Origin: Reichenbachiella faecimaris
GTDB taxonomy: Bacteria > Bacteroidota > Bacteroidia > Cytophagales > Cyclobacteriaceae
Direction of reading: 5' to 3'
Assembly (NCBI RefSeq): GCF_900176375.1
Contig: NZ_FWYF01000001.1
Coordinates: 1,062,449-1,126,448 of the forward strand
DNA length: 64,000 nt
Part shown: in pieces, positions 6,062 to 23,845 of the stretch
Numbering within the stretch: the stretch's first letter is position 1
How the letters are laid out: each line of letters starts with the position of its first letter
Notes under the pieces: generated by a model
What the model was told of the DNA's origin: nothing
Seen by the model: the letters and a program-made list of their open reading frames with translations, nothing else
The model's database searches: none
Translations under genes and position numbers: made by a program

Positions 6062-9000
6062 ATGAGAGGTATTTTATCTATTATGATGACCATCTTGTTG
6101 TCATTTATTATCAACCAGCAAAGTCTTTTGGCACAAACCAGCGGCATCAGCTGTGGAACTTCCCAAGCGATGGAAGAGCTATACAAAGCGAGGCCTGAAG
6201 CAGCAAAAAAGGCTCAGGAGTTCAATCAATTTACCAAAACATTTGAGGTACAGCAGTCGGCACAACGCAAGGCCGCTTCTGGCTATACCATACCCGTAGT
6301 TTTCCATGTATTTGGTTCGGATTTTCAAGGTGCTTCTGTGACACAGTCCATCATTGAAGATGCGCTACAAAAAACAAATGAAGATTTCAATGGACTTAAC
6401 CCTGATTACGGCGACGTGTCAGCCTATTTCAGTGGCAGAAAATCAACATTGGATATTGATTTTGCTTTAGCCAAAATTGACCCTAATGGAAACGCAACTA
6501 CTGGCATCACTTTCAACTCAGCCAGATCTGGGTTTGGAAATGGAGGAGGGTATGACAGTCAAATCCAGCAATATGCCTGGGACAACAACAAGTATATGAA
6601 CATCTACATCATGTTGGACTTGTACGATGATGGTGCCACTAACAACTCTGGTGTAGCCTGGTATCCAGATCAGTGGATGACAGACAATAATCTCGCTCGT
6701 GTGGTGTACAATGGTCGCTATCTGGGAACAAACACTAGTGAAAATTTCAGAAGAGTGCTAACTCATGAATTTGGACACTACTTGAATCTGGCGCATACCT
6801 TTGACAATGGCTGTTCCGCTCCTGGAGACCATGTGAGCGATACGCCATCTACCACTTCCAACTCTGGAACTTGTAACTATACAGTAGAAACCTGTAGTGG
6901 TGCCGGACCCGCCAATGGCGAAAATTTCATGGATTACTCTGAGTGCTATCGGATGTTTACCCAAGGTCAAGTAGCACGTATGGAAGCTGCCTTAAATCAT
7001 TCGGCCAGACAGCCACTCTGGCAAGCTTCGAACTTAGTCGCAACAGGAGTGGATGGTATAGGTGCGCACGTGCTATTGGCCTCTTCTTCTTTTTCAGAAG
7101 ATCAAACCAATGATGGCACGATAAACGGTCAAACCAGTATCACAGCCGAAAATGGAGCTTCGTTCGCAGCTTCTGGAACCCTGACTGAGGGCATACACTA
7201 CACGACAACAAACTTACCCAATGGCCTGAATATTTCTATTACAGTCACCAATAGCACAACAGCTACTTTCAATATCTCCGGTGCGGCAAATAATCACAGC
7301 CAGTCCAATAGTCTGAATGATCTCTCTGTCACTTTTCTTGATCCAACTATTACAGGAGGTGCAAATAGTCTATTCAGCCCTACGCTCACCATGTCCATCG
7401 AATTTATTGATCCCTATCAAATTGTGTACGAAGACATGACAGATGTATCTGCCAGTGCCTCTGCCACTTGGACGTATTTTACAATCAATACAGGTGGGCA
7501 TGCTTATGGCGCCTGGTATGATAATGGGAAATTAAGATTAGAAACCTACACCAAATCAATGATTTGTGAAGGCTCTTCGAGAAATCTTACCAAGCTAGAT
7601 TTCGGAGACCCTATCAATGCTACGTCTAATTGGGTGGCCGGTGGCGCATATCCTGATGAACATGATATACGATCCAATCAATACACGGTCTGGGATGGCT
7701 CTTCTGGGTATCTAGGGTTTCAAGTAACCAATAATCAGGGTTTGAATATCAATGGATGGTTCAGCATAACAGTGGCGGCCAATGGCAACTCATTCACCAT
7801 TCATGACTATGCCTACAATGAAGATCCTAACGGTACCATTACTGCGGGCCAAACTACAGCAAATACAGGAAACCCTCCTGTGGCAGCCTTTTCAGCTTCT
7901 TCCACCATAATCATTGAAGGGGAATCAATTTCTTTTACAGACGAATCCACCCACACACCTACGAGTTGGAGTTGGGCATTTGAGGGAGGTACGCCTGCGA
8001 CAAGCACTAATCAAAATCCAGAAGTAACTTATACTACAGCTGGAGTCTATGAAGTGACCCTGAATGCATCAAATTCGAGTGGAAATGACAGCATCACAAT
8101 GACTGACTACATCACTGTAAACGAAGCTACTGGTTCAGCGTATTGTGAATCTGCCGGAAGTCGTGTCTCTTATGAATGGATTGCGAATGTGACCCTGAAT
8201 AATTTCTCCAATCCTTCGGACGCACAACTCTATTCAGATTTTACGAATCAAACTATATCAATTACCAAAGGACAAAGTCATGCAGTTGCACTGACCCCAG
8301 GATTCTCTGGATCAGCGTACAACGAGTACTTCAAGATCTGGATTGATTACAACCAAGATGGTGACTTTGAAGATGCAGGTGAAGTGGCCTTTGATGCAGG
8401 GGCCGCTTCCAACACCACAGTCAATGGATCCATTATACCTCCAACTTCAGCATTATTAGGTAGCACAAGAATGCGAGTCTCCATGAAGTATAATTCCGCC
8501 CCTACCTACTGTGGCAATCTGGGTGATGGTGAGGTAGAGGATTATACAGTCAATATAAGCAATGACACCACTCCACCTGCCGAATACTGTGAAGTCACCA
8601 ATGGTGCACCTAATGGTCAGTATATCAAAAGATTTCAATTCGGGAATATAGATAACAGCTCCAACTATGAAAATGGAGGGTATTCAGATTTCACCTCCCA
8701 AACGACTACTATTCAAGCTGGCTCACCCACTTCTATGACGATCACACCACACAACACTTGGGGAGCTACAGGAGCAAAAGCATGGATAGACTGGAACAGA
8801 GATGGTGACTTTAATGATGCGAATGAAGAAGTGCTGTCTGGGTCAGGAAGTGGCGGAAGCTACAGTGCCACTGTAAGTGTGCCAGCTGGTGCAGTTGATG
8901 GAATAACCAGACTCCGTATTCGTGCGCTTTATAGTGGCACAGCTACTCCTTGTGACGATGAATACTTCAGCGAGGTGGAGGATTATTCTATAGATGTGAA

Positions 9001-9286
9001 TACTGGAGTCACAGGGCCTACTGACAACATAGGTGTATATGGCAATGTAAAGCTCTATCCAAACCCATTTAAGGATTTCATTCAATTGGATCTGACGGAT
9101 TTTTCTGCTGAAGAAGTTGAGATTACTTTATTTGATCTCACTGGTGCAATAAAATATCAACAGAGGATATCTTCTACAGAAAGTCATTTAAGAATTGGGA
9201 CAAATTTGGAAGATGGGTTCTATGTCCTCCATGTAAAAACTGACCAATTACGCGAAGTACATCACATAGTTAAATCAGATCAATAA
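6062..9286 (+). CDS. Secreted M43B (ulilysin/cytophagalysin-type) zinc metalloprotease with PKD domain, two GEVED domains and a T9SS C-terminal sorting domain
   Basis: It has a signal peptide. The HEFGHYLNLAHTF motif (HExxHxxxxxH) is followed by CSAPGDHVSDTP, as in ulilysin. A PKD-like domain follows (PVAAF...YEVTLNASN). GEVEDYTVNI and SEVEDYSIDV are two GEVED domains. The C-terminus (KLYPNPFKDFIQLDL...FYVLHVKTD) matches a T9SS CTD. Confidence 0.8.
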   Translation: MRGILSIMMTILLSFIINQQSLLAQTSGISCGTSQAMEELYKARPEAAKKAQEFNQFTKTFEVQQSAQRKAASGYTIPVVFHVFGSDFQGASVTQSIIEDALQKTNEDFNGLNPDYGDVSAYFSGRKSTLDIDFALAKIDPNGNATTGITFNSARSGFGNGGGYDSQIQQYAWDNNKYMNIYIMLDLYDDGATNNSGVAWYPDQWMTDNNLARVVYNGRYLGTNTSENFRRVLTHEFGHYLNLAHTFDNGCSAPGDHVSDTPSTTSNSGTCNYTVETCSGAGPANGENFMDYSECYRMFTQGQVARMEAALNHSARQPLWQASNLVATGVDGIGAHVLLASSSFSEDQTNDGTINGQTSITAENGASFAASGTLTEGIHYTTTNLPNGLNISITVTNSTTATFNISGAANNHSQSNSLNDLSVTFLDPTITGGANSLFSPTLTMSIEFIDPYQIVYEDMTDVSASASATWTYFTINTGGHAYGAWYDNGKLRLETYTKSMICEGSSRNLTKLDFGDPINATSNWVAGGAYPDEHDIRSNQYTVWDGSSGYLGFQVTNNQGLNINGWFSITVAANGNSFTIHDYAYNEDPNGTITAGQTTANTGNPPVAAFSASSTIIIEGESISFTDESTHTPTSWSWAFEGGTPATSTNQNPEVTYTTAGVYEVTLNASNSSGNDSITMTDYITVNEATGSAYCESAGSRVSYEWIANVTLNNFSNPSDAQLYSDFTNQTISITKGQSHAVALTPGFSGSAYNEYFKIWIDYNQDGDFEDAGEVAFDAGAASNTTVNGSIIPPTSALLGSTRMRVSMKYNSAPTYCGNLGDGEVEDYTVNISNDTTPPAEYCEVTNGAPNGQYIKRFQFGNIDNSSNYENGGYSDFTSQTTTIQAGSPTSMTITPHNTWGATGAKAWIDWNRDGDFNDANEEVLSGSGSGGSYSATVSVPAGAVDGITRLRIRALYSGTATPCDDEYFSEVEDYSIDVNTGVTGPTDNIGVYGNVKLYPNPFKDFIQLDLTDFSAEEVEITLFDLTGAIKYQQRISSTESHLRIGTNLEDGFYVLHVKTDQLREVHHIVKSDQ

Positions 9287-9336: not shown

Positions 9337-10533
9337 TCAAGGTGTCGTAGCTTTATAGATAACCGCAGATGATGAAGAGTTTATTTCATAAGTACTCTCT
9401 GACTCCAAAAAGCAGGATTCACCTCTTTTTAATTTCAAAGCCAATGTACGTTCTGTAATTTCAATTTCACCGTCAATGACCATCAGAACCTCAGCAGTCT
9501 TCGCCTCAGATTTATAAGTAGTGCCTGCAGTCAGTTCAATTTTACTCAATTGAAAGTCTGGTGCTGGGCTTTTATAAATTCTTTCCAGTCCATCTGGTTG
9601 TAACTCACCTTTCATGATATGAGGGTGGGTTTTCTCAAAGGCTACATGTTTGAGTAATTCTGGCACGTCCACATGTTTTGGTGTAAGCCCTCCCCTGATC
9701 ACATTGTCTGAGTTTGCCATCAGTTCCATATTTTGGCCTTGCATGTAAGCATGCGGGATGCCAGCGTCTTGAAAGACTGCTTGTCCAGGCATCATCTTTA
9801 CAACGTTGAAAAAGTAGATGGAATAGAGTCCCTTGTCTATTTTATCATCTGAGCAAAAAGTCTTGTAGGCCTTTGCTGCCCAATAATCAGCAGAAGCCTT
9901 GTTCAATTCTCCGTCTTCGAACCTTTTTAAAACCCTGTTAATCAAAGGCTGAAGCACTTGATTAGTGGTCTCATCAGGTTCTTCCATCACATGTTGATAC
10001 AATCCTCTGTATCCAGCCTCTTCGAAAATCGAAACCAAGGGGGTCAATTCTTGCGTCGTTTGTAGCGTCTTCTTTAGCTCAGCTTCAGGCAAAAAACCAT
10101 GCAACAACCAAAACTCGCTCAAGGCCACCATGATTTCTGGCTTGTGGTTGTTGTCTTTATAATTTCTATTTGGGGCATCAAGTGCAATCCCCAATTCATT
10201 TTCATTGGCAAATCCCTTTTCAGCTTCTGCCTTGGTTGGATGCACCTGAATAGACAACATATCATTCACATCTAAGACTTTGAACAGAAAAGGTAATCGG
10301 CCAAATTTGGATTCAGTGATCTCACCCAACACCTCCTTGGCATTGGCTTCAATAAATGAGTCAAGGTTAGTCCCTGTGTCTGTTAAAACTGAAGGAGCAT
10401 TCACATGTGCCCCCAACCAATATTCTGCACAGGGCCTTCCCTCAGCTCGAATACCAAGCAAATTTGGAATGTAACTCTTCCCTCCCCAAGCGTAGTTTTG
10501 AACTTTCCCCTTAAGTGAATGTAATTTTGACAT
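9337..10533 (-). CDS. manA: Mannose-6-phosphate isomerase, class I
   Basis: It aligns along its length with type I PMI. Matching segments are VQNYAWGGKS, ELPFLFKVL-type (RLPFLFKVLDV), SIQVHP zinc ligands, NYKDNNHKPE, and ANSDNVIRGGLTPK. Confidence 0.85.
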   Translation of the reverse strand: MSKLHSLKGKVQNYAWGGKSYIPNLLGIRAEGRPCAEYWLGAHVNAPSVLTDTGTNLDSFIEANAKEVLGEITESKFGRLPFLFKVLDVNDMLSIQVHPTKAEAEKGFANENELGIALDAPNRNYKDNNHKPEIMVALSEFWLLHGFLPEAELKKTLQTTQELTPLVSIFEEAGYRGLYQHVMEEPDETTNQVLQPLINRVLKRFEDGELNKASADYWAAKAYKTFCSDDKIDKGLYSIYFFNVVKMMPGQAVFQDAGIPHAYMQGQNMELMANSDNVIRGGLTPKHVDVPELLKHVAFEKTHPHIMKGELQPDGLERIYKSPAPDFQLSKIELTAGTTYKSEAKTAEVLMVIDGEIEITERTLALKLKRGESCFLESESTYEINSSSSAVIYKATTP

Positions 10534-10692
10534 TAAATACCAATGTATGAATTTGTAGGTTTGGCGTGCAATTTAATAATGATTTAAGAAGGGTTTTGAA
10601 ATTATGGAAACTTAATAATTGTTCTTGTCAGAAATCGAATGGCACGAGCTCCACACCAGATCTAAAGTTAGAACTAATCCGAGCTGAAACGT

Positions 10693-10710
10693 TTGTGGCC
10701 CCTCCAGGAA
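10693..10710. repeat. Distal att direct repeat of the integrative element (ttgtggcccctccaggaa), a copy of the tRNA-Arg 3-prime end
   Basis: It is an exact 18-bp match to 25194..25211, which overlaps the 3-prime acceptor arm of the tRNA at 25197..25268. Confidence 0.7.
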
Positions 10711-10852
10711 ACCGTAAATATTTGAAACTCAGCTTAAAACCAGAATTTAGAAAAAAAATAATCAAACATTTCCATTAATTAGGTTATTCTCATTGTGGGA
10801 AGAAACGTTCTCTTAGACAATAAAACTCCAAAAACTTAATCAAGAACAACTT

Positions 10853-10889
10853 ATTAAACTAAATTACGTACAACATATTAAACTAAATT
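10853..10889 (+). promoter_or_regulatory. Pair of 13-bp direct repeats (attaaactaaatt) upstream of the Fic gene, a candidate operator or promoter element
   Basis: Copies are at 10853..10865 and 10877..10889, about 40 bp upstream of the ATG at 10931. Confidence 0.25.
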
Positions 10890-10930
10890 TAACGCATCAA
10901 TAAATACTTAAATAAACACAAACCTTATCA

Positions 10931-12466
10931 ATGGCACTACCATCCGAAAAATTAGCACAATCTCTGGAAGTTCTGAAAGAAATACAAAGCAATGGTTCGA
11001 AAACAATCAAAGCTAAAAACCTCACCAGAACACATAGAGAAAGGTTACTAAAACATGGCTTCATCAAAGAAGTAATGAAAGGATGGTATATATCTTCAAG
11101 ACCAGATGAAGTTCCAGGAGACAGCACAAGTTGGTACACCTCATTTTGGGACTTTTGTTCTAACTATCTAAATGATCGATTTGGAAATGAATGGTGCTTA
11201 TATCCTGAGCAATCTTTACTATTACACAGTGGCAACTGGACTATACCAAATCAATTATTGGTAAAAGCCACAAAAGGCCAAAATAATCAGACCACTCTCC
11301 TTTATGGAACTTCTATCTTTGACACAAGGCTTTCTTTGCCAGCCCATGACTCAATTATTGAAATTGACGGGCTTAAACTTAACACTCTGCCGTCAGCCCT
11401 AATCTCAATTTCTGAAAATTTCTATCGTCTACATCCGATAGATAGCCGAACCGCACTGAGCTTGATTAAAGATTCATCAGATATTTTAACGCTATTATTA
11501 GATGGGGGGCATTCGACAATTGCCGGCCGGCTAGCTGGTGCATTTAGAAATATAGGTAACGATCGTGTGGCAAACGACATAATCAAAACCATGAGGGCAG
11601 CTGACTATGACGTAAGGGAGACCGACCCATTTGAAGAAAAATTACAACATTCGATCAATACTAGAGAAGTATCTCCTTATGTACAACGTATAAAATTGCT
11701 CTGGCAGCAAATGAGAGATGAAATCATAGACATTTTCCCAAAAGCTCCTGATGTAAAGAACAAAGAAAGTTACCTGAAATTAGTTGAGGAACTTTATACA
11801 ACTGACGCTTATCACTCCCTATCCATAGAAGGATATCAAGTCACTTCAGAGCTTATAGAAAGGGTCAGATCCGGTAGTTGGAATCCCGATAGTAACGTAG
11901 AAGATCAGGATCAAAAAAATGCCTTGGCCGCAAGAGGCTACTGGCTAGCCTTTCAGTCCGTGAAAACAAGTATTGAAAAAATATTTGATGGTCAACCCCC
12001 AGGAGGAGTAGCTGATTTGGATCATGGAGATTGGTATCGGGCACTTTTTCAACCGAGTGTTGCTGCAGGTATCATAAAACCTTCAGATCTGGCAGGGTAT
12101 CGCAATAGCCCTGTTTATATCAAAAATTCTAAGCATGTACCATTGAACCGGGATGCCGTCCGAGATTGCATGCCAGTCTTATTCGAACTACTGTCGAATG
12201 AATCAGAAGCTTCGGTACGAGCCATTTTAGGACATTTTATTTTCACTTTCATTCACCCCTATATTGACGGAAATGGTCGAATTGGCCGCTTCTTGATGAA
12301 CGTAATGTTGGCCTCTGGGGGGTATCCATGGACAATTATTCCTGTAGAGAAAAGAAATGAATATATGAATGCTCTAGAAAAAGCCAGTATCAATCAAGAC
12401 ATTCAACCCTTTGCTCATTTTGTTTCTCAACAAGTAAAACTTATTAATTCATCAAATAAGCGTTAA
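10931..12466 (+). CDS. Fic family protein (class II, AMPylase-type Fic core with cis inhibitory helix) with an N-terminal ~260-aa AbiEi-like wHTH extension
   Basis: The canonical Fic motif HPYIDGNGRIGR is at 12254..12289. An (S/T)xxxE(G/N) inhibitory motif (SLSIEG) is at 11816..11833, upstream of the core. The N-terminal segment (LTRTHRERLLKHGFIKEVMKGWYISSRPDE) resembles AbiEi-type wHTH. Confidence 0.85.
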   Translation: MALPSEKLAQSLEVLKEIQSNGSKTIKAKNLTRTHRERLLKHGFIKEVMKGWYISSRPDEVPGDSTSWYTSFWDFCSNYLNDRFGNEWCLYPEQSLLLHSGNWTIPNQLLVKATKGQNNQTTLLYGTSIFDTRLSLPAHDSIIEIDGLKLNTLPSALISISENFYRLHPIDSRTALSLIKDSSDILTLLLDGGHSTIAGRLAGAFRNIGNDRVANDIIKTMRAADYDVRETDPFEEKLQHSINTREVSPYVQRIKLLWQQMRDEIIDIFPKAPDVKNKESYLKLVEELYTTDAYHSLSIEGYQVTSELIERVRSGSWNPDSNVEDQDQKNALAARGYWLAFQSVKTSIEKIFDGQPPGGVADLDHGDWYRALFQPSVAAGIIKPSDLAGYRNSPVYIKNSKHVPLNRDAVRDCMPVLFELLSNESEASVRAILGHFIFTFIHPYIDGNGRIGRFLMNVMLASGGYPWTIIPVEKRNEYMNALEKASINQDIQPFAHFVSQQVKLINSSNKR

Positions 12467-12554
12467 ATTTTACCCTAGATCTTATTAACTCTAATTATAT
12501 AGATCTTTACTTGAAGTATTAAATAATTTAGATGTACATAGACGAAAACCCAAC

Positions 12555-15500
12555 TTGATCAAATCAATTTTCTCCTTTCGAAACTTTAGTATAGCTTGTT
12601 ATACACTGTCGATAGTATTAGCTCTTATCTGGCACTTTTATTTTGATGGTGGTTTCGAGCCATTCACAGTACTCCCTTTGTTCGTTCTATCTTTAGCTGG
12701 ATATCTACTCAATAAGCACGCTAACAATATAAATCATGAACTTTTTTCAAATTTTCAGAACGAAATTAATGAAGCTGAAAATTTGTTCATTTCATATTTC
12801 ACCAGATCATGCATAAAAAGACTCGATGAAATCCAAAAGAGAATTGATACGTCTACCTTAACAGGGACACTTGGTACAACATTAAAAGCTAGGGCATTCT
12901 ATCTTAAAGGCCAATGCTATAGTCATATTGGAGACAATGACAATGGCTTTCCTTGTTTCCTTCAAGCAGCATCACTGAAAACGGACATAAAATATCTAGA
13001 AAGAAAATGCACCATCACATATCATGCTGGCGAAGAAAATAATGCACTTGAAATAGCCAATGACATTCTTGAACAAGACCCCTTAAATCCACGCGCAAAT
13101 GCAATAAAACTAATTATTGATAAAAACTTTGACATAGAAAGTATACATCCTTTCCTAAAAACGGATAAAACATTTAATCAAATATTCGGCAATATAGTAT
13201 CGAAACAATATCAGATAAATATTGACAAAAAACTTATCGATCTGGAATCTATAATAGTGCCAGATACCTTAAGTTCAGAAGACTATCACTATTGGGTATT
13301 TATCCTTTCGCATAGTTATTCAAAATTCTTACAAGAAAATCCGCTGGTATATTCAAAGCCAAATCCTGATAAATTAAACTCCTCAACTTCCCTTATTTCA
13401 AATATTAGTTCAATTTCAGAAATCATTCTTAATGCCACGAAAAATTCTGAACTAATTGAACAAAGTCAAACACTCAAATCTATTGAGTTTATTAGCCTTC
13501 ATATAAAATATTTACTTTATCAAGATTCAAATATCCCCAACAAAATGGTTAAAGTTATAACTCAAGAAGGCTATGTAATTAGTGAAAATGAGTTTATAAC
13601 AACAATTGCTCTATTGGGAAAGGTCAAGCTTCCAGAAATGATACTGAATTTTAAAAATCATGATTACGTCAAAAAATTAAATCTAGAAGTAATTTTCGCT
13701 CTGGCCTGTGTTGAAACGGAAGCAAAAGATGAGGCTATCAGTTTCTTTAAAGGATACATTCAAGGTTTAAACTTAGTTCAACGCTTTGCGGTTAAAAATA
13801 TCACATTGGCCATTGAATATTTTAGGCTTAACGATATTAATACAAGCGATTTATTTGACAATCAGCTAGCAACTAAAAAATATGAATATGAAGTAGATAA
13901 GCTTCTAATTAATATTGCTTGCAAGAAAGACCATATTCCAAATGAAGAATTAAAAAAACTAATTCTTTCCCCAAACCTTGAGCATAAATTACTCAGTATA
14001 GAAAACAAAGAATATTTATGTCTATGCTTAAATCAAATCGGTGAATTCGATGAGAGTAATAAACTTCTCATGGATGACTTAGACATTTCAAAAGAATCAT
14101 TAATGAGCTATCTATATTTAGATAATCTCTATAAAAATAGGAGCCAGTACGATGATTTGATAAAAGGGCTTGAATACTGGAGGTTAAATCATGCCCCCGT
14201 TTTTATATTGATGACCTATGAAATCGAACTTCAGCATACCCTTAGAAACTATGAGAAACTGGAAGAAGTATGTAATTACGGATTAGTACACTACCAAAGC
14301 TACAAAACAACCCTAATATACTATTTAATAATTGCATTAAATGGTGAATCACACAAGATTGATACCCTGAAAAAACTCCTAAACGAGGACGCATTGAGTT
14401 GTGATTTCAGTTGGCAAATGGCGTTTCATGTAGCACGCATTTGCTTAAATCATGAGTTTTACGAAATTGGATTTGAACTAGCTTACAGGAAAACTAAGAG
14501 CCGACCAGACAATATTCAAATAAAACAACATTATTTCGCATTAGTTGCGCAATTTTTAGACTCTTCTAAAATCACTGATCCCGGCAAAGTAGAGCTCGAT
14601 TCATCAGTAATTCTAATAGGAGAAAAAAGTAAACATATTATCCATATTAATGCCGACACTATATCTGGAAATAAAATTGTTCGTGAAATTCTAAACCAGA
14701 AAGCTGGCTTTTCCTTTATTAATAAGGACGAAGCCACGAATCAAAGTCGTGAATTGACCATTGAAAAGGTGGTAAATAAATATTCAGGTTTAATGACAGA
14801 AATCATGAATGAAATTTCATCTACGAGCAAGTCATTAGGGTATGACATAATATCTGTAACATACAAACAAGATGATATTGATTCAATTAATAGAGTCCTT
14901 TCCAATAGTTTCGGTAAAATGGGTGATAAAAGACAGATCATTCAAGGAAACGCCTTTAGCAGTTTCAATTCGGGAAAAATTAGTTTCACAAAATTGGTAC
15001 TAAATGTGAATTCATCAAGTTCAATAGAGATTTATCGTTCCTTGATAAGCGACTCTACTGCCAGTATTCATATTGTACCGAAGTCGTTATTTAATCAAGC
15101 AGATTTTTCTAAAGTAACTGAATATGTCCTTGATATCACCTCTTTGTTGATCCTTTCAAAATTAAAACCCAAAATCGACAGCGAAAATATAACTCTACTG
15201 GTGTCTCAAATATTGATAGATTATTTAGAATTCAAGACACAAGAGGTAAGACATATGCCCGATGAGGCTATGAATCTAAATATTACCTCTCTGGGCGTTC
15301 AACCATTCTTCTACCCTGAAAACTATAGAGCAGAATTGCTAAAGCAACTTTCAAATTTGACAAGTTGGATATCTGAAAATTGTAAAATTGAGTTTGCACC
15401 TGACAAGCTGGACTTACTTATGAAAGACCCTACATTGCTTGATAGAGAAGATTGGCATTTTCAACTTTGTTTGGATAATCTGCTAATAGCAAATAGACCA

Positions 15501-16031
15501 AATAGGTCTATTATCTCAGATGATCTAATGTACTTTCAAGAAAAACGGCCTTTCACTAACCCTCTTAGTGTCGAACACTTTCTCAGGATTCATAAACCAG
15601 ACCAATTAAGAGAGTACCAGCTCAGCTTACTCGAATTTAACCAGGTAGGATTGACATTAGATTCTAAGGTAATAACGCAGTGTTTCGAAGAAAACCCGAT
15701 GATTGAATCATCAAATAACCTCTTCAGAAAAGCAGTTAACAACTTATCATTTCATAAACATGGTGATCCAAACCTAATTTATGAGGTAATAGTTACCGTA
15801 AAAAACATTTACTTACTCGAATTGGAAAGGGGTTTCAAGCAGAGATTAGCTCAAACCTTGTTTACTGAAGCTTTAAAAGGTTACCCAATTACACTTAACT
15901 CTGGCACTAAATTTAGTGAATTTATCAAAAAGGAATTTTGCCTAATGGGAGACATTGGTCTCGACGTTATCGATGCGCTAACCAAGTCATTAGAAATTCT
16001 AAACAAATCAAGAAATCTTGCAGCAGACTAA
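12555..16031 (+). CDS. Large (1158 aa) membrane-anchored alpha-helical repeat (TPR-like) protein of unknown function, co-oriented downstream of Fic
   Basis: The ORF is long and uninterrupted with a TTG start and no in-frame ATG for >300 codons. Two N-terminal hydrophobic helices are present. The remainder is helical, Leu/Ile/Lys/Asn-rich, without a Walker A or other recognisable catalytic motif. It lies 88 bp after the Fic stop. Confidence 0.55.
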   Translation: MIKSIFSFRNFSIACYTLSIVLALIWHFYFDGGFEPFTVLPLFVLSLAGYLLNKHANNINHELFSNFQNEINEAENLFISYFTRSCIKRLDEIQKRIDTSTLTGTLGTTLKARAFYLKGQCYSHIGDNDNGFPCFLQAASLKTDIKYLERKCTITYHAGEENNALEIANDILEQDPLNPRANAIKLIIDKNFDIESIHPFLKTDKTFNQIFGNIVSKQYQINIDKKLIDLESIIVPDTLSSEDYHYWVFILSHSYSKFLQENPLVYSKPNPDKLNSSTSLISNISSISEIILNATKNSELIEQSQTLKSIEFISLHIKYLLYQDSNIPNKMVKVITQEGYVISENEFITTIALLGKVKLPEMILNFKNHDYVKKLNLEVIFALACVETEAKDEAISFFKGYIQGLNLVQRFAVKNITLAIEYFRLNDINTSDLFDNQLATKKYEYEVDKLLINIACKKDHIPNEELKKLILSPNLEHKLLSIENKEYLCLCLNQIGEFDESNKLLMDDLDISKESLMSYLYLDNLYKNRSQYDDLIKGLEYWRLNHAPVFILMTYEIELQHTLRNYEKLEEVCNYGLVHYQSYKTTLIYYLIIALNGESHKIDTLKKLLNEDALSCDFSWQMAFHVARICLNHEFYEIGFELAYRKTKSRPDNIQIKQHYFALVAQFLDSSKITDPGKVELDSSVILIGEKSKHIIHINADTISGNKIVREILNQKAGFSFINKDEATNQSRELTIEKVVNKYSGLMTEIMNEISSTSKSLGYDIISVTYKQDDIDSINRVLSNSFGKMGDKRQIIQGNAFSSFNSGKISFTKLVLNVNSSSSIEIYRSLISDSTASIHIVPKSLFNQADFSKVTEYVLDITSLLILSKLKPKIDSENITLLVSQILIDYLEFKTQEVRHMPDEAMNLNITSLGVQPFFYPENYRAELLKQLSNLTSWISENCKIEFAPDKLDLLMKDPTLLDREDWHFQLCLDNLLIANRPNRSIISDDLMYFQEKRPFTNPLSVEHFLRIHKPDQLREYQLSLLEFNQVGLTLDSKVITQCFEENPMIESSNNLFRKAVNNLSFHKHGDPNLIYEVIVTVKNIYLLELERGFKQRLAQTLFTEALKGYPITLNSGTKFSEFIKKEFCLMGDIGLDVIDALTKSLEILNKSRNLAAD

Positions 16032-16079
16032 CAGACTCAGGAAGTTCTAATTGTCACCCATTTCTGATACTGTTAGCAA

Positions 16080-17252
16080 TTACAATAATGAATTACTCGT
16101 ATGAACTAACGTTCTCAAAAAGTGAATTTGAAAAAACCACAAGCAAACGCTATTAAAATGAGATAATTCGAGGTTTCTAATATTCTCAATTTCATTCTCA
16201 GGGCTAACACAATTACCATTAAACAGTAGGTTTTTAGCCAATTTTTCAGACAGAGCCCAATAATCATCCTGACGCAATAACACCCGGCCGGCAAACCTAT
16301 TTTTTAGTTTTTCAAAATCATTTTTAGAAATACCTTTGGTCAACCTATTCATTTCAGATTTTATCAATGCTATAGCTCTTTTGGTCTTTGATTTCTCTAC
16401 ATCAAATTCGAGGTAAAGAAGTCCACAATCGGAAAAACGGGGAGCATTCAGATCGATATCATAAATCAATTGATTTTCGACTCTCAGTCTTTGATAAACC
16501 CGATCCTCGAACATGCAAATGGCCAGCTGAATGTACAAATCATCTTCATGATCATATTTAGGTATTGGAAAACCTAAAATTACATGATCTGGATCTTCTG
16601 GCAGATTCGTTTTATCCCAAATTTCAAAGCTGTCGCAATAGTAAAATGCTTTTCTCACTCGGTGATTTGCCTCTAGTGATACTGTACCAAATGCATCATT
16701 AAACATGGCCTCTACTTCTGCATCTGGCAAATCCGAAATAATTGAGATTACCGCCCTCGATGTACTAAAGATCCTGGAATAAAATGCTGACATCTTATCA
16801 ACGCCAATCTTTTGAATACTGGCCTTTGTGCCAAGTATACTTCTCCCAAGGTCATGATTGCGAAAAAACAATTCGTAATACTCATCAATCATCTCATCTG
16901 ATTCGTCAATCTCACACAAAACGATCTCTTTTTCTCTTGAGACCATATCACTATCAATAGACAAGTCAAAAACCTCCTTTTTTAAAGAATCTAAACTTTG
17001 AGATAAGAATTGCTTAGGTACAACAAATTGGAAAGTCATTTCCTCATGACCGGTTCCTGCATCTAATTGTCCACCTCTCGCTTCAACTACTTCGCTGAGC
17101 TTTTGATTGGACATTATCAAATGCTCCAGAAAGTGGGCATAACCCTGTTCATCGCTTCTTTCATCCCTGCTACCAAACCCAAGAGTAAAGCAAACATAAA
17201 CACCCTGTATACCTGGGTTTCTTTGATAATATGCTTTTATCTCATTGGACAT
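16080..17252 (-). CDS. M16 family (pitrilysin/insulinase-type) zinc peptidase-like protein
   Basis: The inverted zinc motif HFLEH is at 17121..17135. The surrounding sequence, GSRDERSDEQGYAHFLEHL...EVVEARGGQLDAGTGHEEMTFQF, matches the M16 N-terminal signature (GSRhE..G.AHFLEHm...GG.lNA.T..d.T.Y). The track ORF starts with TTG at 17297. The likely ATG (MSNEIK) is at 17252. Confidence 0.7.
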   Translation of the reverse strand: MSNEIKAYYQRNPGIQGVYVCFTLGFGSRDERSDEQGYAHFLEHLIMSNQKLSEVVEARGGQLDAGTGHEEMTFQFVVPKQFLSQSLDSLKKEVFDLSIDSDMVSREKEIVLCEIDESDEMIDEYYELFFRNHDLGRSILGTKASIQKIGVDKMSAFYSRIFSTSRAVISIISDLPDAEVEAMFNDAFGTVSLEANHRVRKAFYYCDSFEIWDKTNLPEDPDHVILGFPIPKYDHEDDLYIQLAICMFEDRVYQRLRVENQLIYDIDLNAPRFSDCGLLYLEFDVEKSKTKRAIALIKSEMNRLTKGISKNDFEKLKNRFAGRVLLRQDDYWALSEKLAKNLLFNGNCVSPENEIENIRNLELSHFNSVCLWFFQIHFLRTLVHTSNSLL

Positions 17253-17312
17253 TGAAACCAACTTCTTATTACATATTATGAGATATAAACTATACAATGA
17301 TCAGTACTAGGT

Positions 17313-17978
17313 TTATTGTAAGTATTCATGCATCAATCGAGTTGTCTTATTAATAAGGCCAGCTAAATTATCCTCCAAGAATCCATTATAATTTGAAACT
17401 GGTCTTTGAATCATGACATTAGCCATTTCTTCTACATTTAAATTGTGCTCTGGCAAGAATTTGGAAATCAGAATTGAACTTTCCAAGGGATGATTTATCA
17501 AATCTTCAAAATTGATTATTAAGATTGGCATCTTATAATCTTTTAAACTTTGAAGTGTGGAAAAAGTCATTCTTTCTATATCGGACACATCAACCAATTG
17601 AGACTTCAATTTTAATAAATCAACTTTCGGGTCATTAGTCTTTTCTTTATCCTTAAGAAGACCGAATAGTAAGTTCGAGACTTTTTTTATACTCTTAGAT
17701 TGTTCTTTTGAGTTTCTCAATACCCAAATAAATTTATAAGAATATCCCTTTGGCAAGTTCAAACAAAACGGAAATAATACCTTGACAGCTGCACCTTTGC
17801 ATTCATTTAGCCAAGAGGATTTTTCGGGCAATGCCATCTGTAAAGGAGATTCAAAAAAGGGATGAAACTTAGGATCAACAAAAACAGGAAGTCCTCCTTG
17901 ATTCAGCATTTTCATTAATAAAGAAGATCCACATCTTCCCATTCCCGTAACTACAGTAATAGAATTTTTAACTTTCAT
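17313..17978 (-). CDS. Small P-loop protein, sulfotransferase-family-like
   Basis: An N-terminal P-loop-like VVTGMGRCGSSLLMKML is at 17922..17945, resembling the 5-prime-PSB motif of bacterial sulfotransferases. A possible 3-prime-PB-like WVLRNSKEQ follows. The gene ends 15 bp before the M16 gene start, so the two form an operon. Confidence 0.4.
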   Translation of the reverse strand: MKVKNSITVVTGMGRCGSSLLMKMLNQGGLPVFVDPKFHPFFESPLQMALPEKSSWLNECKGAAVKVLFPFCLNLPKGYSYKFIWVLRNSKEQSKSIKKVSNLLFGLLKDKEKTNDPKVDLLKLKSQLVDVSDIERMTFSTLQSLKDYKMPILIINFEDLINHPLESSILISKFLPEHNLNVEEMANVMIQRPVSNYNGFLEDNLAGLINKTTRLMHEYLQ

Positions 17979-18100
17979 GATTTTGAGATTATATTTTTTA
18001 TTAATTACAATTTCAGGTTAGATCAACCAACTATTAAAAACCTGAATTCTTTCTTCTTCAATATCTGCCAACACAGAATTGGCATTAGAATGTCTTAAAT

Positions 18101-19117
18101 TTATTCCTGAGACAGAATATTTGACGCTAAAATTGATTTGCCGAGGGAATACTCAAGGCTATCCTTAAGATCCAGATCTAAGCACAGACGTTTATGGTCT
18201 GACCACCAATCATTTTTCACATGTTCCTGGATTGATTCAACTGTTAATCTCAACCTTTCTAATAGCTCATTTTCTTCTGGAATATCATCATATAAATCGT
18301 TGAATTCTCCTAACGCTGACACTGCATTGATTTTATTAAGTAGGGAGTCGCAAGCTTCAACTGTTAATTTTTGATCTTGTAAACTGAGTATTTCAACAAT
18401 TAGAGATTTAAAATCTCCGGTAAATTGAAGATTGGCATTGCCTTTTTCATCGAAGTCCTCTTTCTCTAAAATAACCTCAATTTGAAACTGGTCTGATAAT
18501 GTAATAACATCAGAGTGAAGATTGGTTTCCAAGCGTTTAATCTTCATATTCTCAAACCTTTCGATAAATCTGGTAGCCTGGTTCCAAATTAGATTCTCTG
18601 TGTATTGATCAGCATCATAATCATAAATGTCCTCAACAGCATCTTGGATATCTTCAAGACTATTTATGTAATGATCGGTTTCCTCCAGTTTATGCGCATA
18701 CTCAGGAGGTAGCTCTATCAATCGTCTCAAAACTTTCTTAAAGCCTTTCAAGGCAATTCTTTTTTTCTTGCGCAACTCTATTGCCGCAGAATTTAGTAAG
18801 TCATTTGAAGCTGAATTAGCGTCAAATTTAATGAGCTCCTTTTGTTCTTCTTGTGGTTCACTGTGAACTTGTTTGGGTTCATTTTCGACTTCCGTTGGTT
18901 CACTTTGGGATTCTACTAGTTCATTTTCCAATTGAGTCAGGGCTTCAATTTCATCATCCGAACTGAACTGATTGATCCATCTGTATATTGTGGCCTTCGA
19001 TACTTGTCCTTCTAGCTGGCGTTCAATTTCATTTGCGTTACGTCCTTCTTCAAATAACTTTCTGGCCTCTTCTCTTAATTCTTTATTTCCTTTCATGATT
19101 TCAGGTTTATAAAACAT
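18101..19117 (-). CDS. HTH-domain protein (N-terminal terminase-small-subunit-like or transposase-like HTH, acidic linker, C-terminal domain of unknown function)
   Basis: The N-terminus reads EGRNANEIERQLEGQVSKATIYRWINQ. An acidic E/Q-rich tract follows. The rest has no recognisable motifs. Confidence 0.45.
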   Translation of the reverse strand: MFYKPEIMKGNKELREEARKLFEEGRNANEIERQLEGQVSKATIYRWINQFSSDDEIEALTQLENELVESQSEPTEVENEPKQVHSEPQEEQKELIKFDANSASNDLLNSAAIELRKKKRIALKGFKKVLRRLIELPPEYAHKLEETDHYINSLEDIQDAVEDIYDYDADQYTENLIWNQATRFIERFENMKIKRLETNLHSDVITLSDQFQIEVILEKEDFDEKGNANLQFTGDFKSLIVEILSLQDQKLTVEACDSLLNKINAVSALGEFNDLYDDIPEENELLERLRLTVESIQEHVKNDWWSDHKRLCLDLDLKDSLEYSLGKSILASNILSQE

Positions 19118-19181
19118 GAAACAAATGAATAATATCGGATCTGATTTGGTTTTTAGAATTTTTGCATTCTTGCATTAATTT

Positions 19182-19406
19182 TCATTCCCTTTCCATCTTT
19201 TTCTCATATTCCCATTCAATATCCAGGTGTTTGAGCAGTTTTATCATCTGGCCGCTGGAAATCAACCCCCTTTTCTTTATGTTAATTTCAGACCTAGAAT
19301 TGACAGCACTCTCAATCGATTTTCTCAATGTGGGTTGTGATACACCTAACATATCAGCCAATTCTTTACGGTTGAAAAAGTTTTTATTGTTTGGAAGTAT
19401 AACCAT
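19182..19406 (-). CDS. Small HTH DNA-binding protein (AlpA/excisionase or regulator-like)
   Basis: It is 74 aa with FNRKELADMLGVSQPTLRKSIE as the HTH. It sits immediately downstream of the iteron region. Confidence 0.5.
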   Translation of the reverse strand: MVILPNNKNFFNRKELADMLGVSQPTLRKSIESAVNSRSEINIKKRGLISSGQMIKLLKHLDIEWEYEKKMERE

Positions 19407-19494
19407 AATTCAGTGCTGGAGCTGAGATATTATTTTGTGGCCTTGTTTAGCTGACGAAAACTGATTTGCGTCTCATGTAGCAATTTTAAAAAAT

Positions 19495-19750
19495 GCGTAG
19501 TTTTTGTAGTTTTCGTCGTTTCGAGAAATAACAAATTGATTATCAAATAATTAGGCAAGTTAAAAAAACTACAAAGCAAAAATATGTGTGTAGTTTTTTG
19601 TAGTAATGGATTCCAATTATATTGGATAAAAACTACGTATACTACATTTTTAAAATAGGAATGTAGTTTTGTAGTACACCCAAATACATCATTATTGAAT
19701 GTATAGGGCTTATTTTTAGGAAAAACTACAAAAACTACAAAAACTACGTT
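19495..19750. repeat. Iteron array (at least 9 copies of AAAACTAC / GTAGTTTT in both orientations, including 3 tandem AAAAACTAC at 19721..19748), a candidate replication or transfer origin
   Basis: Examples are cgtagtttttgtagttttcg (19497-), aaaaaactacaaagc (19563-), gtgtagttttttgtag (19588-), aaaactacgtatactac (19629-), atgtagttttgtagtac (19661-) and aaaaactacaaaaactacaaaaactacg (19721-). The array is non-coding and lies directly upstream of the primase-helicase gene. Confidence 0.65.
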
Positions 19751-19803
19751 ATTTACAATCATGATATTAATAATCTAAAATTGCTTTGATTTCATATTCA
19801 GTC

Positions 19804-22134
19804 TTAAAATGGTAAATCAGTACTTTCGTCGGTATCATCGGATTCCTTTCTATTAAACTCTTCCAGTTCTTCTTCATTGAGCCATTCTTGTACGATAAAA
19901 TGGTAAGCTCTAGCCTTTTCATCTTTGTAGTATATCGTTGGAGCTACTCCAGGAATCGTTGAATCAACATTATTCCATCCAATGGGAATTTTTATATCTC
20001 TAGGATCGTTTGGCTTTAATTTTCTTTTGTCTTTGAGGTATGTTTTCAACTCAATAGTATCAACCTTATATTTTGACATTTTAGGATCGTTCAATACTTC
20101 CACTAAATGACTGATTGAATACTTTAGAACAGGTAATTTGAAAGTAAGAAACTGGTCTTTAATCCAATCTTCAAAAACTCTATCCAATCGGTTTTTGGTG
20201 GTTTCTACGATGATGCGAAATTGCTCAGTTTCGAACTGGTCAGGGCTAAACCAAAGCCTATCAGTTTTGTCGTGCGCCACTGATCTATTGGCGATGAAAT
20301 GAAGGAAAGCAGGAATTTCCTTTTTCAGCTTCATTTCCAGATCCGGGTCTTTGTCTTCTTTGGGTATCACTGGCACCCGTACCACAAACCAGCGGCTTTC
20401 GCCGTCCTCGATCTTCATCACACGGTCGGCATCGTTCGAGCAAATGATTAGCTTTCCATAATAGGCCGTTTTTTTCACGTCCATGCCTTTGATTTCCATA
20501 TAGGAGGTATCGGCCGTGGCGAGCTGCTTTAGTCGCTCTTTTTCCGCTTTCTTGTCTACTTCGAGAAAACCTTCGTCTATCGCAATGATGAATTTATTTA
20601 TATAATGGGCGTTGAATTTCATTTTGAATTGATCATTGCCCAGGATAGCCATGTTCGACCCGTAGATGGCCTGTAGCCATTTGAGGAAAGTACTTTTGCC
20701 TGTGCCGTTCTCAGGACTTACTAGAATAGGTACAGGAAGCATTTGTTTGGGTCGCTGAAACTGTAAAGTCAGGTAATCCAATGCCACAGTAAACTGATCG
20801 CCAATGATATTGTTTTCTATAGTGCCTTCGCCCTGGAAGATATGCCTTAGAAATTTGGCCGTATTAGGAAACTCCCCTTCTACAAGGTCATGGGTGAGCG
20901 GACTATAAAGGTTGTAGCAATCGTAATGCACTCGTTTATAGTTCTCATTCCAACACGGTTCACTACAGAAAGCATCGTATTTAGGCACGTTGTCCAGGAA
21001 GTCAGGAAAAAACTTGTAGTCACGCTGTATTTCTCCAATTTTCCATCGTATCAAATCTTCTTCAGGTTCACCGTATTTGTTTGGCGTGGTAATCACTTTT
21101 ACCCAATCAGGGCCTATACGCATATATTTTTCGGTGTCTTCGTGTCGGACATACTTCACAGCTTCACCGTTGAACTCATACCTTCGTTTTTTGAAGAGAA
21201 ATTCCCGTGATCCTATAAATGCCTTGTAGGTAGTGTAAAATTCGGTTTCGTTGCGCAGACCGAAGTAGGCATACATGCGCTGGAGCTTGCCATCGGTGAG
21301 AATGTGACCCGTGAAATACTTCTGTGCAAACTGAAATTTGAGCAGATCATTTTTGATTTCTTCTCGTGGCTTTCCGGCGGTGTATTTGCCCAGCAGATCG
21401 TCCAGCCCTTTGGCATCTTCCTGAATGTAGCGGCTGCGAATGTGCATAAAATACACATTGGTCAAAGCCACCTGGTCGTCGTCTAGTAGCAGCTCCACCG
21501 ATTCACGCAAGTACTTGACAGCACTATAAAAAGACTGCGGCCGCTGGCTTAGGTCTTTGTCTTTCTTCCAGTTGACTGTGAGGGTGTCGGCATCGGTGAG
21601 GTAGACCAGTTTTTCGACCTTGCAGACGGTAATGAGTTCGATTAGTTCGTGGTGTAATTCGCCTGGCATATCGCCGCTGTAGAATCCGTGTATAGATGGT
21701 AACCCTACGATATCAAATCCGCACGTATCGCCCATCCAGGCTTTAAATTCACCTTCGGTGAGTACCAAAGTATCAATGTTTTCTTTCTTGGCGTATTTAG
21801 CCAATATACCAGGAGGAAAAAACGGGTGATGTCCTGATCCTTTGGGCTGCCAGTACTTCATATCACCTTCAGGATTTTTCAATCGCTTTCTGCTGAAGGG
21901 TTCCGCCCATTTGTTGCCTGGCTTGGTGTATTTGACCCGTGACTTATTGAGCTTGAAATAATTGATTACAATATTGTCTTCGTCGTCGGTTTCGAAGTAT
22001 CGGTTTGATACCTCGATATCTTCATTCGAAATATGGCCTTTTCGTTTGAGGTTTACGACATTGTTTTGGTCGGTCACACCCAGCGCCTTCATGCGCTGCT
22101 CAAAATAGCTCTGATTATTTTTCAAAGACTCCAT
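19804..22134 (-). CDS. DNA primase-helicase (N-terminal Toprim, C-terminal P-loop NTPase of the VirE/D5-like type)
   Basis: Toprim motifs are LTEGEFKAW and YLTDADT (DxD). The Walker A is SPENGTGKST and the Walker B-like motif is IIAIDEGF. Size and architecture are typical of Bacteroidetes and phage-satellite pri-rep proteins. Confidence 0.75.
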   Translation of the reverse strand: MESLKNNQSYFEQRMKALGVTDQNNVVNLKRKGHISNEDIEVSNRYFETDDEDNIVINYFKLNKSRVKYTKPGNKWAEPFSRKRLKNPEGDMKYWQPKGSGHHPFFPPGILAKYAKKENIDTLVLTEGEFKAWMGDTCGFDIVGLPSIHGFYSGDMPGELHHELIELITVCKVEKLVYLTDADTLTVNWKKDKDLSQRPQSFYSAVKYLRESVELLLDDDQVALTNVYFMHIRSRYIQEDAKGLDDLLGKYTAGKPREEIKNDLLKFQFAQKYFTGHILTDGKLQRMYAYFGLRNETEFYTTYKAFIGSREFLFKKRRYEFNGEAVKYVRHEDTEKYMRIGPDWVKVITTPNKYGEPEEDLIRWKIGEIQRDYKFFPDFLDNVPKYDAFCSEPCWNENYKRVHYDCYNLYSPLTHDLVEGEFPNTAKFLRHIFQGEGTIENNIIGDQFTVALDYLTLQFQRPKQMLPVPILVSPENGTGKSTFLKWLQAIYGSNMAILGNDQFKMKFNAHYINKFIIAIDEGFLEVDKKAEKERLKQLATADTSYMEIKGMDVKKTAYYGKLIICSNDADRVMKIEDGESRWFVVRVPVIPKEDKDPDLEMKLKKEIPAFLHFIANRSVAHDKTDRLWFSPDQFETEQFRIIVETTKNRLDRVFEDWIKDQFLTFKLPVLKYSISHLVEVLNDPKMSKYKVDTIELKTYLKDKRKLKPNDPRDIKIPIGWNNVDSTIPGVAPTIYYKDEKARAYHFIVQEWLNEEELEEFNRKESDDTDESTDLPF

Positions 22135-22149
22135 CTATACATCTTTTCT

Positions 22150-22178
22150 AAAAAAAAAGCTGCCTTGAATAGGCAGCT
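22150..22178 (-). terminator. Rho-independent terminator (minus strand) after the 142-aa gene
   Basis: Read on the minus strand, the hairpin AGCTGCC-tattcaa-GGCAGCT is followed by a run of 9 T. Confidence 0.55.
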
Positions 22179-22185
22179 GTTATTA

Positions 22186-22614
22186 TCAACCAACATGTTC
22201 TAAGATCATCTTTTCAAGACTCGATGGTCGGCAGGATTGAGCGATCCTGGCAATGACATTAATCGCATCAAAACATTTTAATGGATCATCGCAATTGTCT
22301 GCAAAGTTCGAAGAAAGAATACTCATACTTTCTATCATATACTCATGAAACTCCAGCAACATGGGAGCTGTATCAAATTCATCAAAGTGAATTTCTATAG
22401 TGTCTTCCTTGCTATTAAGTGTCCTGAATATTGACCTGGCCAGCATCGAAAGAAAGGCGACTTTATCCAGTGTTTCTCTAGGTGAAATCTCGCTACCGTG
22501 AGCAGTAATTGTCTCTATGGCTTGAATTAATTGACTGTAGAACTCTTTCAGATCTGATCTGCTTTCTACACCGGGCATTTTTAATACCCAAGGATTTTTA
22601 GTAGGTTTACCCAT
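22186..22614 (-). CDS. Hypothetical protein (island backbone)
   Basis: It is a 142-aa ORF with an ATG start, good length and a terminator downstream. No motifs were recognised. Confidence 0.45.
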   Translation of the reverse strand: MGKPTKNPWVLKMPGVESRSDLKEFYSQLIQAIETITAHGSEISPRETLDKVAFLSMLARSIFRTLNSKEDTIEIHFDEFDTAPMLLEFHEYMIESMSILSSNFADNCDDPLKCFDAINVIARIAQSCRPSSLEKMILEHVG

Positions 22615-22696
22615 GGTTTATAAAATTTAGTAATGATTATTATATTCCAGTATGCGATAAAAAAATTAGCCCTTGTGTTACGCGCACAAGGGTTTC

Positions 22697-22978
22697 TTAT
22701 TCATCCTCTTCCAGAAAGTATCGATTGACTTCGCTCTCGGGGACATAGAGCTTTTTACCTCTCCGAATGACTTTAATCCTATTTTGATCTCTGAGTTGAT
22801 CAAACTTCCATCGACCAATTTTAGCTTGAAACATGAACTCAGATGCCGTTAAAAATTCTGGACGTGGCACCATTTTTAGATTTTCAAGTGCTCCTAAAAT
22901 CTTATTCTGATTTTCAATGAATTCTTCGAACCTTTCTGAAGGTAATTCAATTATTTGCTTGACTGATGAGCCTTCCAT
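22697..22978 (-). CDS. Excisionase-family HTH (HTH_17-like) DNA-binding protein
   Basis: The protein is 93 aa. LTASEFMFQAKIGRWKFDQL...IKVIRRGKKLYVPESEV matches the MerR-like excisionase HTH common in Bacteroidetes mobile elements. Confidence 0.55.
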   Translation of the reverse strand: MEGSSVKQIIELPSERFEEFIENQNKILGALENLKMVPRPEFLTASEFMFQAKIGRWKFDQLRDQNRIKVIRRGKKLYVPESEVNRYFLEEDE

Positions 22979-23843: not shown

Positions 23844-23845
23844 AA

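Follow-up and report, generated by a model that had tools for sequence, protein, structure and literature searches.

The 64,000-nt stretch of the Reichenbachiella faecimaris genome analysed here (the window) contains, at 10931–16031, a gene for a 511-aa class II Fic protein, followed on the same strand by a gene for an 1158-aa protein, identical to SAMN04488029_0903, which belongs to the TPR-GreA/B-C-PIN family. Comparison of both proteins with their relatives indicated that the two genes are probably independent single-gene conflict-type modules, neighbours rather than partners, carried together on an integrative island at a tRNA-Arg(CCT) gene. The first-pass annotation of this DNA had proposed that they form a pair, with the Fic protein as effector and the giant protein as sensor or scaffold; such a new two-gene defence system was not supported. 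Its positions and values for both open reading frames (ORFs), both motifs, the gap between the genes and the TTG start were reproduced exactly:

10830–10925, + strand: four 24-bp direct-repeat units (aligned) directly before the start codon of Fic, a putative operator
10931–12466, + strand: Fic gene, 511 aa, ATG start, with an AbiEi-like module ahead of a class II Fic domain in one chain
12467–12554, + strand: intergenic gap of 88 bp, without a predicted terminator and without a Bacteroidota -7 box
12555–16031, + strand: TPR-GreA/B-C-PIN family gene (large gene), 1158 aa, TTG start, WP_084371210.1

The two genes were found together in only one other place, L001, a metagenomic contig with 89% DNA identity, in which the arrangement is kept and the Fic and large proteins are 94 and 84% identical, respectively, to those of the window; this is the same locus in a close relative and not an independent occurrence. 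An ORF search of 80 Fic loci, 1.17 Mb together, with a hidden Markov model of the large-protein family gave no match, while its positive controls reached 110–1214 bits, and no Fic gene was present within 8–10 kb of five sampled large-protein subfamilies (P0122, P0123, P0135, P0128 and P0272). In the sister genome L002 the Fic gene stands at the same end of the island without the large gene. Co-occurrence of homologs outside this genome had been named by the first-pass annotation as the check on the pair, and essentially none was obtained.

Relatives of the Fic protein were encoded in at least 591 species-level genomes. The best 80 of them were full-length and 56–66% identical and came from many phyla, including Bacteroidota, Ignavibacteriota, Pseudomonadota, Acidobacteriota, Desulfobacterota, Myxococcota, Verrucomicrobiota and others. 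The largest cluster of neighbouring genes was shared by only 10 of the 80 loci, with no recurrent neighbour, and retention as a solo gene across phyla argues that the Fic protein functions independently of the large protein. Tyrosine-integrase-like neighbours formed three clusters covering about 11 of the 80 loci, and a tRNA gene was present within about 3.5 kb in 10 of the 48 Fic loci scanned. One locus is a defence island with genes for an MmeI-like enzyme, Multi_ubiq/ThiF and NERD proteins; others lie in prophage-like gene strings or in plain chromosomal settings. The pattern is that of a solo gene which integrated elements carry along. A phage-borne family was considered and rejected, since only 11 full-length relatives were present among 2.9 million viral contigs.

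The gap between the two genes was searched for a terminator and for the TAnnTTTG (Bacteroidota -7) box, and neither was found. Since no terminator or recognisable promoter box precedes it, the large gene may be co-transcribed with Fic, as a local transcriptional arrangement only. The missing box is weak evidence, because promoters of Bacteroidota are poorly predicted by the tools at hand, and a sigma-70 promoter scan, with 19 sites against a shuffle mean of 23.7 (fewer than in the shuffles), was uninformative for R. faecimaris. Transcriptional hitch-hiking, in which the large gene would have been inserted downstream and be read from the Fic promoter under the control of the Fic operator array, giving the two genes a shared timing without any physical or mechanistic link, is therefore also limited by the quality of promoter prediction, and we consider it rather unlikely. 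It agrees with the finding of the operator-like array upstream of Fic only and not of the large gene, and with the separate origins to which the base composition (GC 0.395 in Fic vs 0.329 in the large gene) and the different evolutionary rates point: the ratio of nonsynonymous to synonymous substitution rates (dN/dS) relative to L001 was 0.078 for Fic vs 0.255 for the large gene, indicating different selective regimes. The former value shows that Fic is under strong purifying selection.

The Fic protein resolved into the following parts:

10931–11110, + strand: winged helix-turn-helix (wHTH), aa 1–60, which includes LLKHGFIKEVMKGWYI
11111–11620, + strand: alpha/beta domain, aa 61–230, with a fold like that of minimal nucleotidyltransferases and the AbiEi C-terminal domain
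11816–11833, + strand: inhibitory-helix motif SLSIEG, aa 296–301, aligned with TVAIEG of FICD
12254–12289, + strand: Fic catalytic motif HPYIDGNGRIGR, aa 442–453, a regular-expression match

The 511-aa protein matched the Pfam Fic model and has an intact Fic fold. Its catalytic motif carries Tyr in place of Phe (HPY.DGNGR), a substitution conserved family-wide, and H442, D446, G447, N448, G449, R450 and R453 were invariant among 66 family members. From residue 232 to 500 the protein aligned with human FICD, with SLSIEG falling on the inhibitory TVAIEG of the latter; the inhibitory (S/T)xxxE(G/N) helix is located in the same chain, N-terminal to the Fic core, and S296-E300 was invariant among the same 66 members, 30 of which also gave a weak match to the VbhA antitoxin model. 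The assignment to class II therefore stands, as do the intact catalytic motif, the built-in inhibitory helix and the absence of a C-terminal wHTH, the protein stopping right after the Fic core. What had been taken for an unusual N-terminal extension turned out to be the rule, the same architecture being invariant throughout a very large family: the 120 best database matches were 502–533 aa long (with one of 641 aa), 60–94% identical and covered over 97–100% of the length, and dozens of invariant positions fall within residues 1–260.

The domain composition sets the protein apart from the closest known Fic enzymes. Human FICD/HYPE, likewise of class II, has a TPR/transmembrane (TM) region which is missing here, while the C-terminal wHTH of Shewanella SoFic is replaced by an N-terminal module of about 230 aa consisting of a wHTH and a nucleotidyltransferase-like domain. 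Orthology with SoFic was rejected: the NCBIfam SoFic equivalog model scored 27 bits against a cut-off of 550, the PADLOC SoFic model was matched only at profile positions 52–261 of 361, and the C-terminal winged helix is absent. The likeness of the N-terminus to AbiEi, claimed in the first-pass annotation, probably holds at the level of the fold and failed at the level of sequence. No AbiEi Pfam model matched the N-terminus of this protein at E ≤ 10 or any of the 66 members at E ≤ 5, so that, even at permissive thresholds, no such link was obtained to the AbiEi/Rv2827c antitoxins (type IV AbiE and MenAT systems), and a search of the PDB with an N-terminal profile found no AbiEi or Rv2827c sequence. 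No DxD-type acidic motif was conserved in the alpha/beta domain (aa 61–230). The genetic setting is different as well: AbiE systems pair AbiEi with an AbiEii/DUF1814 toxin gene, whereas here the module is fused to the Fic domain and no such gene is adjacent: Fic is flanked by the PIN-family gene on one side and, on the other, by the boundary of the island, past which lies the PMI gene.

Directly before the start codon, the Fic genes carried 3–6 direct repeats whose period is exactly 24 bp, and this was a family-wide feature. Among autocorrelation lags of 10–40, lag 24 was the top one in 84 of 87 upstream regions, compared to 3 of the 83 downstream regions used as controls, and the mean identity at this lag was 0.505 vs a background of 0.27. 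The spacing between copies was exactly 24 bp in 159 cases and 48 bp in 19; exact direct repeats of at least 10 bp were present in 63/87 upstream regions vs 2/83 controls. The repeat unit is composed of two boxes, roughly AATAAnC(T/G)A and (G/T)ACA(A/G)C, the details of which vary by lineage, and the arrays extend from about -150 to -16 relative to the Fic start codon (the window plus L001-L007 and L015-L094). Rfam gave no match for the array and no paper describing it was found in the literature. The array is probably an operator bound by the winged helix of the Fic protein itself, which would make the gene autoregulated; because nothing else co-travels with the Fic gene, self-binding is the simplest reading. 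Such autoregulation has precedents in AbiEi and in CccR of Yersinia pseudotuberculosis (PMC9755527). The repeats bound by AbiEi are inverted, in contrast to the direct, 24-bp-periodic repeats of the Fic arrays. CccR is similarly a single polypeptide in which a Fic AMPylase is joined to a DNA-binding domain, through which it represses the promoter of its own gene; however, it is a type VI secretion system effector of about 380 aa with the SoFic-type order (Fic, then C-terminal HTH) (PMC9755527), while the protein described here has its DNA-binding module, which is of another kind, ahead of the Fic domain, and its gene lies in no secretion context.

Taken as one module, the 24-bp array and the 511-aa Fic protein would function as follows. 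The winged helix would bind the array and repress transcription of its own gene, as AbiEi does; a trigger would displace the inhibitory glutamate E300; and the freed Fic domain could then AMPylate a cellular or invader target, the whole working as a one-chain autoregulated toxin/antitoxin-like or abortive-infection unit. In its general form, the proposal that the family of about 510 aa represents an undescribed, self-contained one-gene mobile module, in which an AbiEi-like regulator is fused to a self-inhibited Fic toxin and controlled via a co-travelling 24-bp-repeat operator (a single-chain type IV-like toxin-antitoxin or abortive-infection unit), is put forward tentatively, as a minority possibility. 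An extension of it, in which the Fic protein of the Reichenbachiella lineage was recruited as a trans-acting effector of the neighbouring TM-type TPR-GreA/B-C-PIN protein, is less likely.

The large protein belongs to a family described as the TPR-GreA/B-C-PIN conflict system (Kaur, Iyer, Burroughs & Aravind, eLife 2021, PMC8195603), and WP_084371210.1 is itself listed in the source table of that work as 'X+PIN', 1158 aa, R. faecimaris, with an empty operon string. It shares with the published family the constant core of a TPR region, a small beta domain and a divergent PIN domain behind a variable N-terminal module, as well as the mostly stand-alone, fast-evolving nature of the gene. In the present analysis, the X of the catalogue corresponded to two hydrophobic helices, a solenoid of about 600 aa and a GreA/B-C-like domain; TM+TM+TPR+GreAB-C+PIN architectures are catalogued in the same table (PMC8195603). 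The archetype has an enzymatic or EAD10 N-terminal effector, in contrast to the large protein, which has neither. The following domains were assigned:

12585–12710, + strand: two hydrophobic, probably transmembrane helices, aa ~11–52, at the variable N-terminal position of the family (from hydropathy and relatives)
12735–14555, + strand: TPR-like alpha-solenoid, aa 61–667, predicted sensor region (from the all-alpha model and Foldseek)
14586–14777, + strand: small beta-rich domain, aa 678–741, assigned as GreA/B C-terminal-like (from the strands of the model, weak hhalign and profile matches and the family description)
15120–15539, + strand: PIN nuclease domain, aa 856–995 (from PF20698, acidic residues and alpha/beta topology)
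15570–16025, + strand: C-terminal helical domain, aa 1006–1157, conserved in the family

The structure model, built on 50 homologs (predicted local distance difference test, pLDDT, 86; predicted template modelling score 0.71), had two low-confidence hydrophobic helices in aa 1–58, an all-alpha solenoid in aa 61–667 with a pLDDT of mostly 85–97, and a beta-rich domain in aa 678–741, connected by a helical linker (aa 742–846) to an alpha/beta domain at the PIN position (aa 856–995), after which a helical tail follows (aa 1006–1157). The hydrophobic helices (aa ~11–30 and 34–52) reached a mean hydropathy of 1.7–1.9, compared to ≤1.12 elsewhere in the protein, and were also present in the relatives P0122 and P0123, in agreement with the two N-terminal TM helices annotated before. 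A motif scan likewise found no Walker A. Two other statements of the first-pass annotation had to be corrected: the TPR-like repeats, given as about 1100 residues, are confined to the solenoid at aa ~61–667 and are followed by other domains, and the protein said to have no nuclease motif has a PIN domain at aa 858–993 with four conserved acidic residues.

The PIN assignment came from PF20698 ('PIN domain associated with the TPR-GreAB-C-PIN system'), which scored 28.4 bits on the whole protein against the Pfam cut-off of 27.8 and 31.2 bits on the isolated C-terminus, and was matched by 38 of 39 full-length relatives tested (best E 3.4e-16). All four canonical PIN acids (D860, E897, D974 and D990) are kept in the large protein; across 50 members the corresponding positions were conserved in 49 (D860), 29 (E897, as Glu), 39 (D974) and 47 (D990). 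A search of the PDB with the whole sequence gave no match, and a profile of the C-terminal 320 aa gave neither PIN nor any other meaningful match there; an hhalign comparison of the PIN region with three aligned sequences, apparently of VapC-type toxins, gave a probability of 0.8% and was uninformative. In Foldseek, the whole model was matched best by TPR solenoids (Ski3, IFT-A, Ctr9 and subunits of APC), which swamped the search, so that it says nothing for or against the PIN and GreA/B-C folds; a weak TPR_8 match was also present in the sequence. For the beta domain, hhalign with a manually entered sequence of E. coli GreA gave E 7.8e-5 and a probability of 62% over 29 columns, a PDB profile search gave weak matches to trigger factor (E 0.02) and Gfh1 C-terminal domains (E 0.08–0.3), and the Pfam GreA_GreB model had no match in the protein.

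A word-indexed search with the large protein returned only itself, and a 50-sequence profile added three distant members. The notion of an orphan was nevertheless rejected, as an exhaustive search produced 245 cluster representatives at E ≤ 1e-3, aligned over residues ~60–1150. These homologs are mostly 1100–1370 aa long and 22–32% identical, with nearly full-length homology; a scan of viral contigs with the single large protein found nothing. The N-terminal modules vary within the family and include Trypsin_2 (a trypsin-like peptidase), a PNP_UDP_1 phosphorylase, SMEK_N and AAA_14-DUF4143, while in the protein's own subgroup this position is occupied by the hydrophobic helices, without an enzymatic effector. 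The gene is mosaic and fast-diverging. Its synonymous divergence from L001 (dS) was 1.14 in aa 301–540 (13455–14174), 0.02–0.11 in aa 541–900 and about 0.35 in the N-terminal parts flanking aa 301–540, a pattern suggesting that part of the putative sensor was replaced by recombination or has diversified.

The genes around the family members vary by subfamily and include integrases, a DUF1016/YhcG-type gene, an MBL-fold gene, AbiJ_NTD3-AAA_15/21, HTH_3 with Peptidase_M78, DUF488 and AAA_14-DUF4143. In the P0135 subfamily (L010-L012), an MBL-fold gene overlaps the start of the family member's gene, and a 407-aa gene begins 5 bp after its stop, within an integrase-bearing element. In L014 the gene for an AAA_14-DUF4143 ATPase lies just upstream, and in P0271 such an ATPase is fused to the family member. 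Some TPR-GreA/B-C-PIN subfamilies may thus have partners of their own.

Following the model of Kaur et al. 2021 (PMC8195603), the TPR region of this second module would sense an invader, the GreA/B-C domain would dock at the secondary channel of RNA polymerase, and the PIN domain would cut the transcript; action on RNA polymerase and transcripts and protection against invaders are predictions only for this family (PMC8195603). The N-terminal helices may tether the protein to the membrane or serve as a back-up membrane effector.

Several points count against two independent modules. The same orientation, the 88-bp gap with neither terminator nor -7 box and the conservation of the arrangement in L001 make co-expression and a lineage-specific functional link possible. 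The subgroup of the large protein is devoid of an enzymatic N-terminal effector, which leaves room for one acting in trans. That the winged helix binds the 24-bp array is a proposal, the GreA/B-C assignment of aa 678–741 is weak, and the predicted PIN fold was not confirmed against solved structures by Foldseek, PDB profile search or hhalign, although the latter fits its published description as a previously undetected version of PIN. No experimental paper on either family was found in the literature, and the validated PIN proteins of the DefensePredictor paper are others, not members of the TPR-GreA/B-C-PIN family.

The first two of these points would also be expected if the two genes formed a dedicated abortive-infection system, with the large protein sensing infection or serving as a scaffold and activating Fic, the latter being the 'variable effector' supplied in trans. 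In addition, some Pseudomonas aeruginosa entries in Figure 2 source data table 7 of PMC8195603 have a 'DOC+HTH' (Fic-type) gene upstream of the family member, at a distance of a few genes. This was the only other proximity of Fic and PIN-family genes seen; the two are separated by unrelated genes and probably share no more than placement in a defence island. Against such a system stand the lack of a large-protein homolog at any of the 80 Fic loci and of a nearby Fic in any of the five large-protein subfamilies, the island end in L002 with Fic alone, the solo existence of Fic at 56–66% identity in many phyla and the origin of L001 from the same locus in a close relative, and the large protein already carries its own predicted nuclease. 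We consider this possibility very unlikely. More improbable still is that neither gene is a conflict system, with Fic acting in housekeeping, as a regulator that modifies a protein of the host, and the large protein serving as an ordinary TPR scaffold anchored in the membrane: this would agree with the failure to find an experimental defence phenotype for either family in the literature and with the ordinary chromosomal contexts of some Fic loci, but the integrated element that carries both genes varies between sister genomes, the Fic family is patchy, found near integrases and tRNAs and in defence islands, and the large-protein family has swappable N-terminal modules and fast mosaic divergence and adjoins integrases, AbiJ-type ATPases and restriction-type genes.

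With two independent modules as the preferred reading, the pair as such is not worth pursuing, the large protein being already catalogued as a predicted single-gene system and the Fic protein coming from a very widespread solo family. The locus does yield a model, resolved into domains, for a TPR-GreA/B-C-PIN protein of the TM type. Three traits of the Fic family are striking, namely 56–66% identity across phyla, the AbiEi-like DNA-binding module and the 24-bp-periodic array; they make it a candidate, accessible to study, for an autoregulated toxin or defence module that consists of one protein, and the array is a new observation and offers an immediate experimental handle on the family.

Both genes are cargo at the att-distal end of a 14.5-kb integrative element (10693–25211) inserted at tRNA-Arg(CCT). 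The element is bounded by an exact 18-bp direct repeat, TTGTGGCCCCTCCAGGAA, at 10693–10710 and 25194–25211 (chance expectation 0), the second copy of which overlaps the 3' end of the tRNA gene (25196–25268, - strand), next to a tyrosine integrase gene. These boundaries and the integrase bear out the earlier placement of the two genes on an island. Its GC content is 0.359, compared to 0.403 outside. The remaining features of the island are:

10693–10710, no strand: distal att-like direct repeat TTGTGGCCCCTCCAGGAA, left island boundary, an exact 18-bp copy of the tRNA-Arg 3' end
16080–19117, - strand: further island cargo, consisting of an M16-family peptidase, a 221-aa protein and a 338-aa protein
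19804–22134, - strand: replication-type gene of the island, DUF5906/VapE-like, matching phage DNA-primase PHROGs
22697–22978, - strand: 93-aa ORF, probably an excisionase-type HTH protein (assigned by eye)
23846–25036, - strand: tyrosine integrase (Arm-DNA-bind_5 + Phage_int_SAM_5 + Phage_integrase; PHROG integrase match)
25194–25268, - strand: tRNA-Arg(CCT) (25196–25268) with the proximal 18-bp att repeat (25194–25211), right island boundary

The island contains the integrase, the primase-type DUF5906 protein and the probable excisionase, and genes for packaging, capsid redirection or conjugation were not recognised in it by Pfam or PHROGs; it may be satellite-like (PICI-like). The sister genome L002, in which the Fic protein is 80% identical and synteny with the window extends over both flanks, has a different tRNA-Arg 3' sequence, and its own variant, GCCTCGGCAAGAATC (a 15-bp repeat), recurs between PMI and Fic. 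This covariation of the distal repeat with the tRNA variant shows that L002 carries a decayed version of the island (about 9800–16415, ~6.6 kb), in which Fic and an integrase remnant are kept, the large gene is absent, and an opposite-strand gene for a 1003-aa sortilin-like protein follows Fic in place of the remaining island content. A location of Fic outside the island was rejected, since in both the window and L002 the distal att repeat lies beyond Fic.

In the second cargo block (16080–19117, - strand), the M16-family peptidase is 405 aa long; the 221-aa protein gave a weak P-loop/sulfotransferase match (E 0.0023) and the acidic 338-aa protein a weak N-terminal HTH match, and no match to PHROGs or defence models was obtained for the block. 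Just outside the distal att repeat, at 10640–10692, a short stretch (…CCAGATCTAAAGTTAGAAC…) resembles an internal part of tRNA-Arg (…CCTGGATCTAAAGTTTAGGAAAC…) and may be the remnant of an older integration or a chance similarity. Further outside the island, at 6062–9286 (+ strand), is a gene for an M43 metalloprotease of 1074 aa, in which GEVED and PKD domains are combined with a Por secretion (type IX secretion system) C-terminal sorting domain; the protein looks like an ordinary secreted protease of Bacteroidota.

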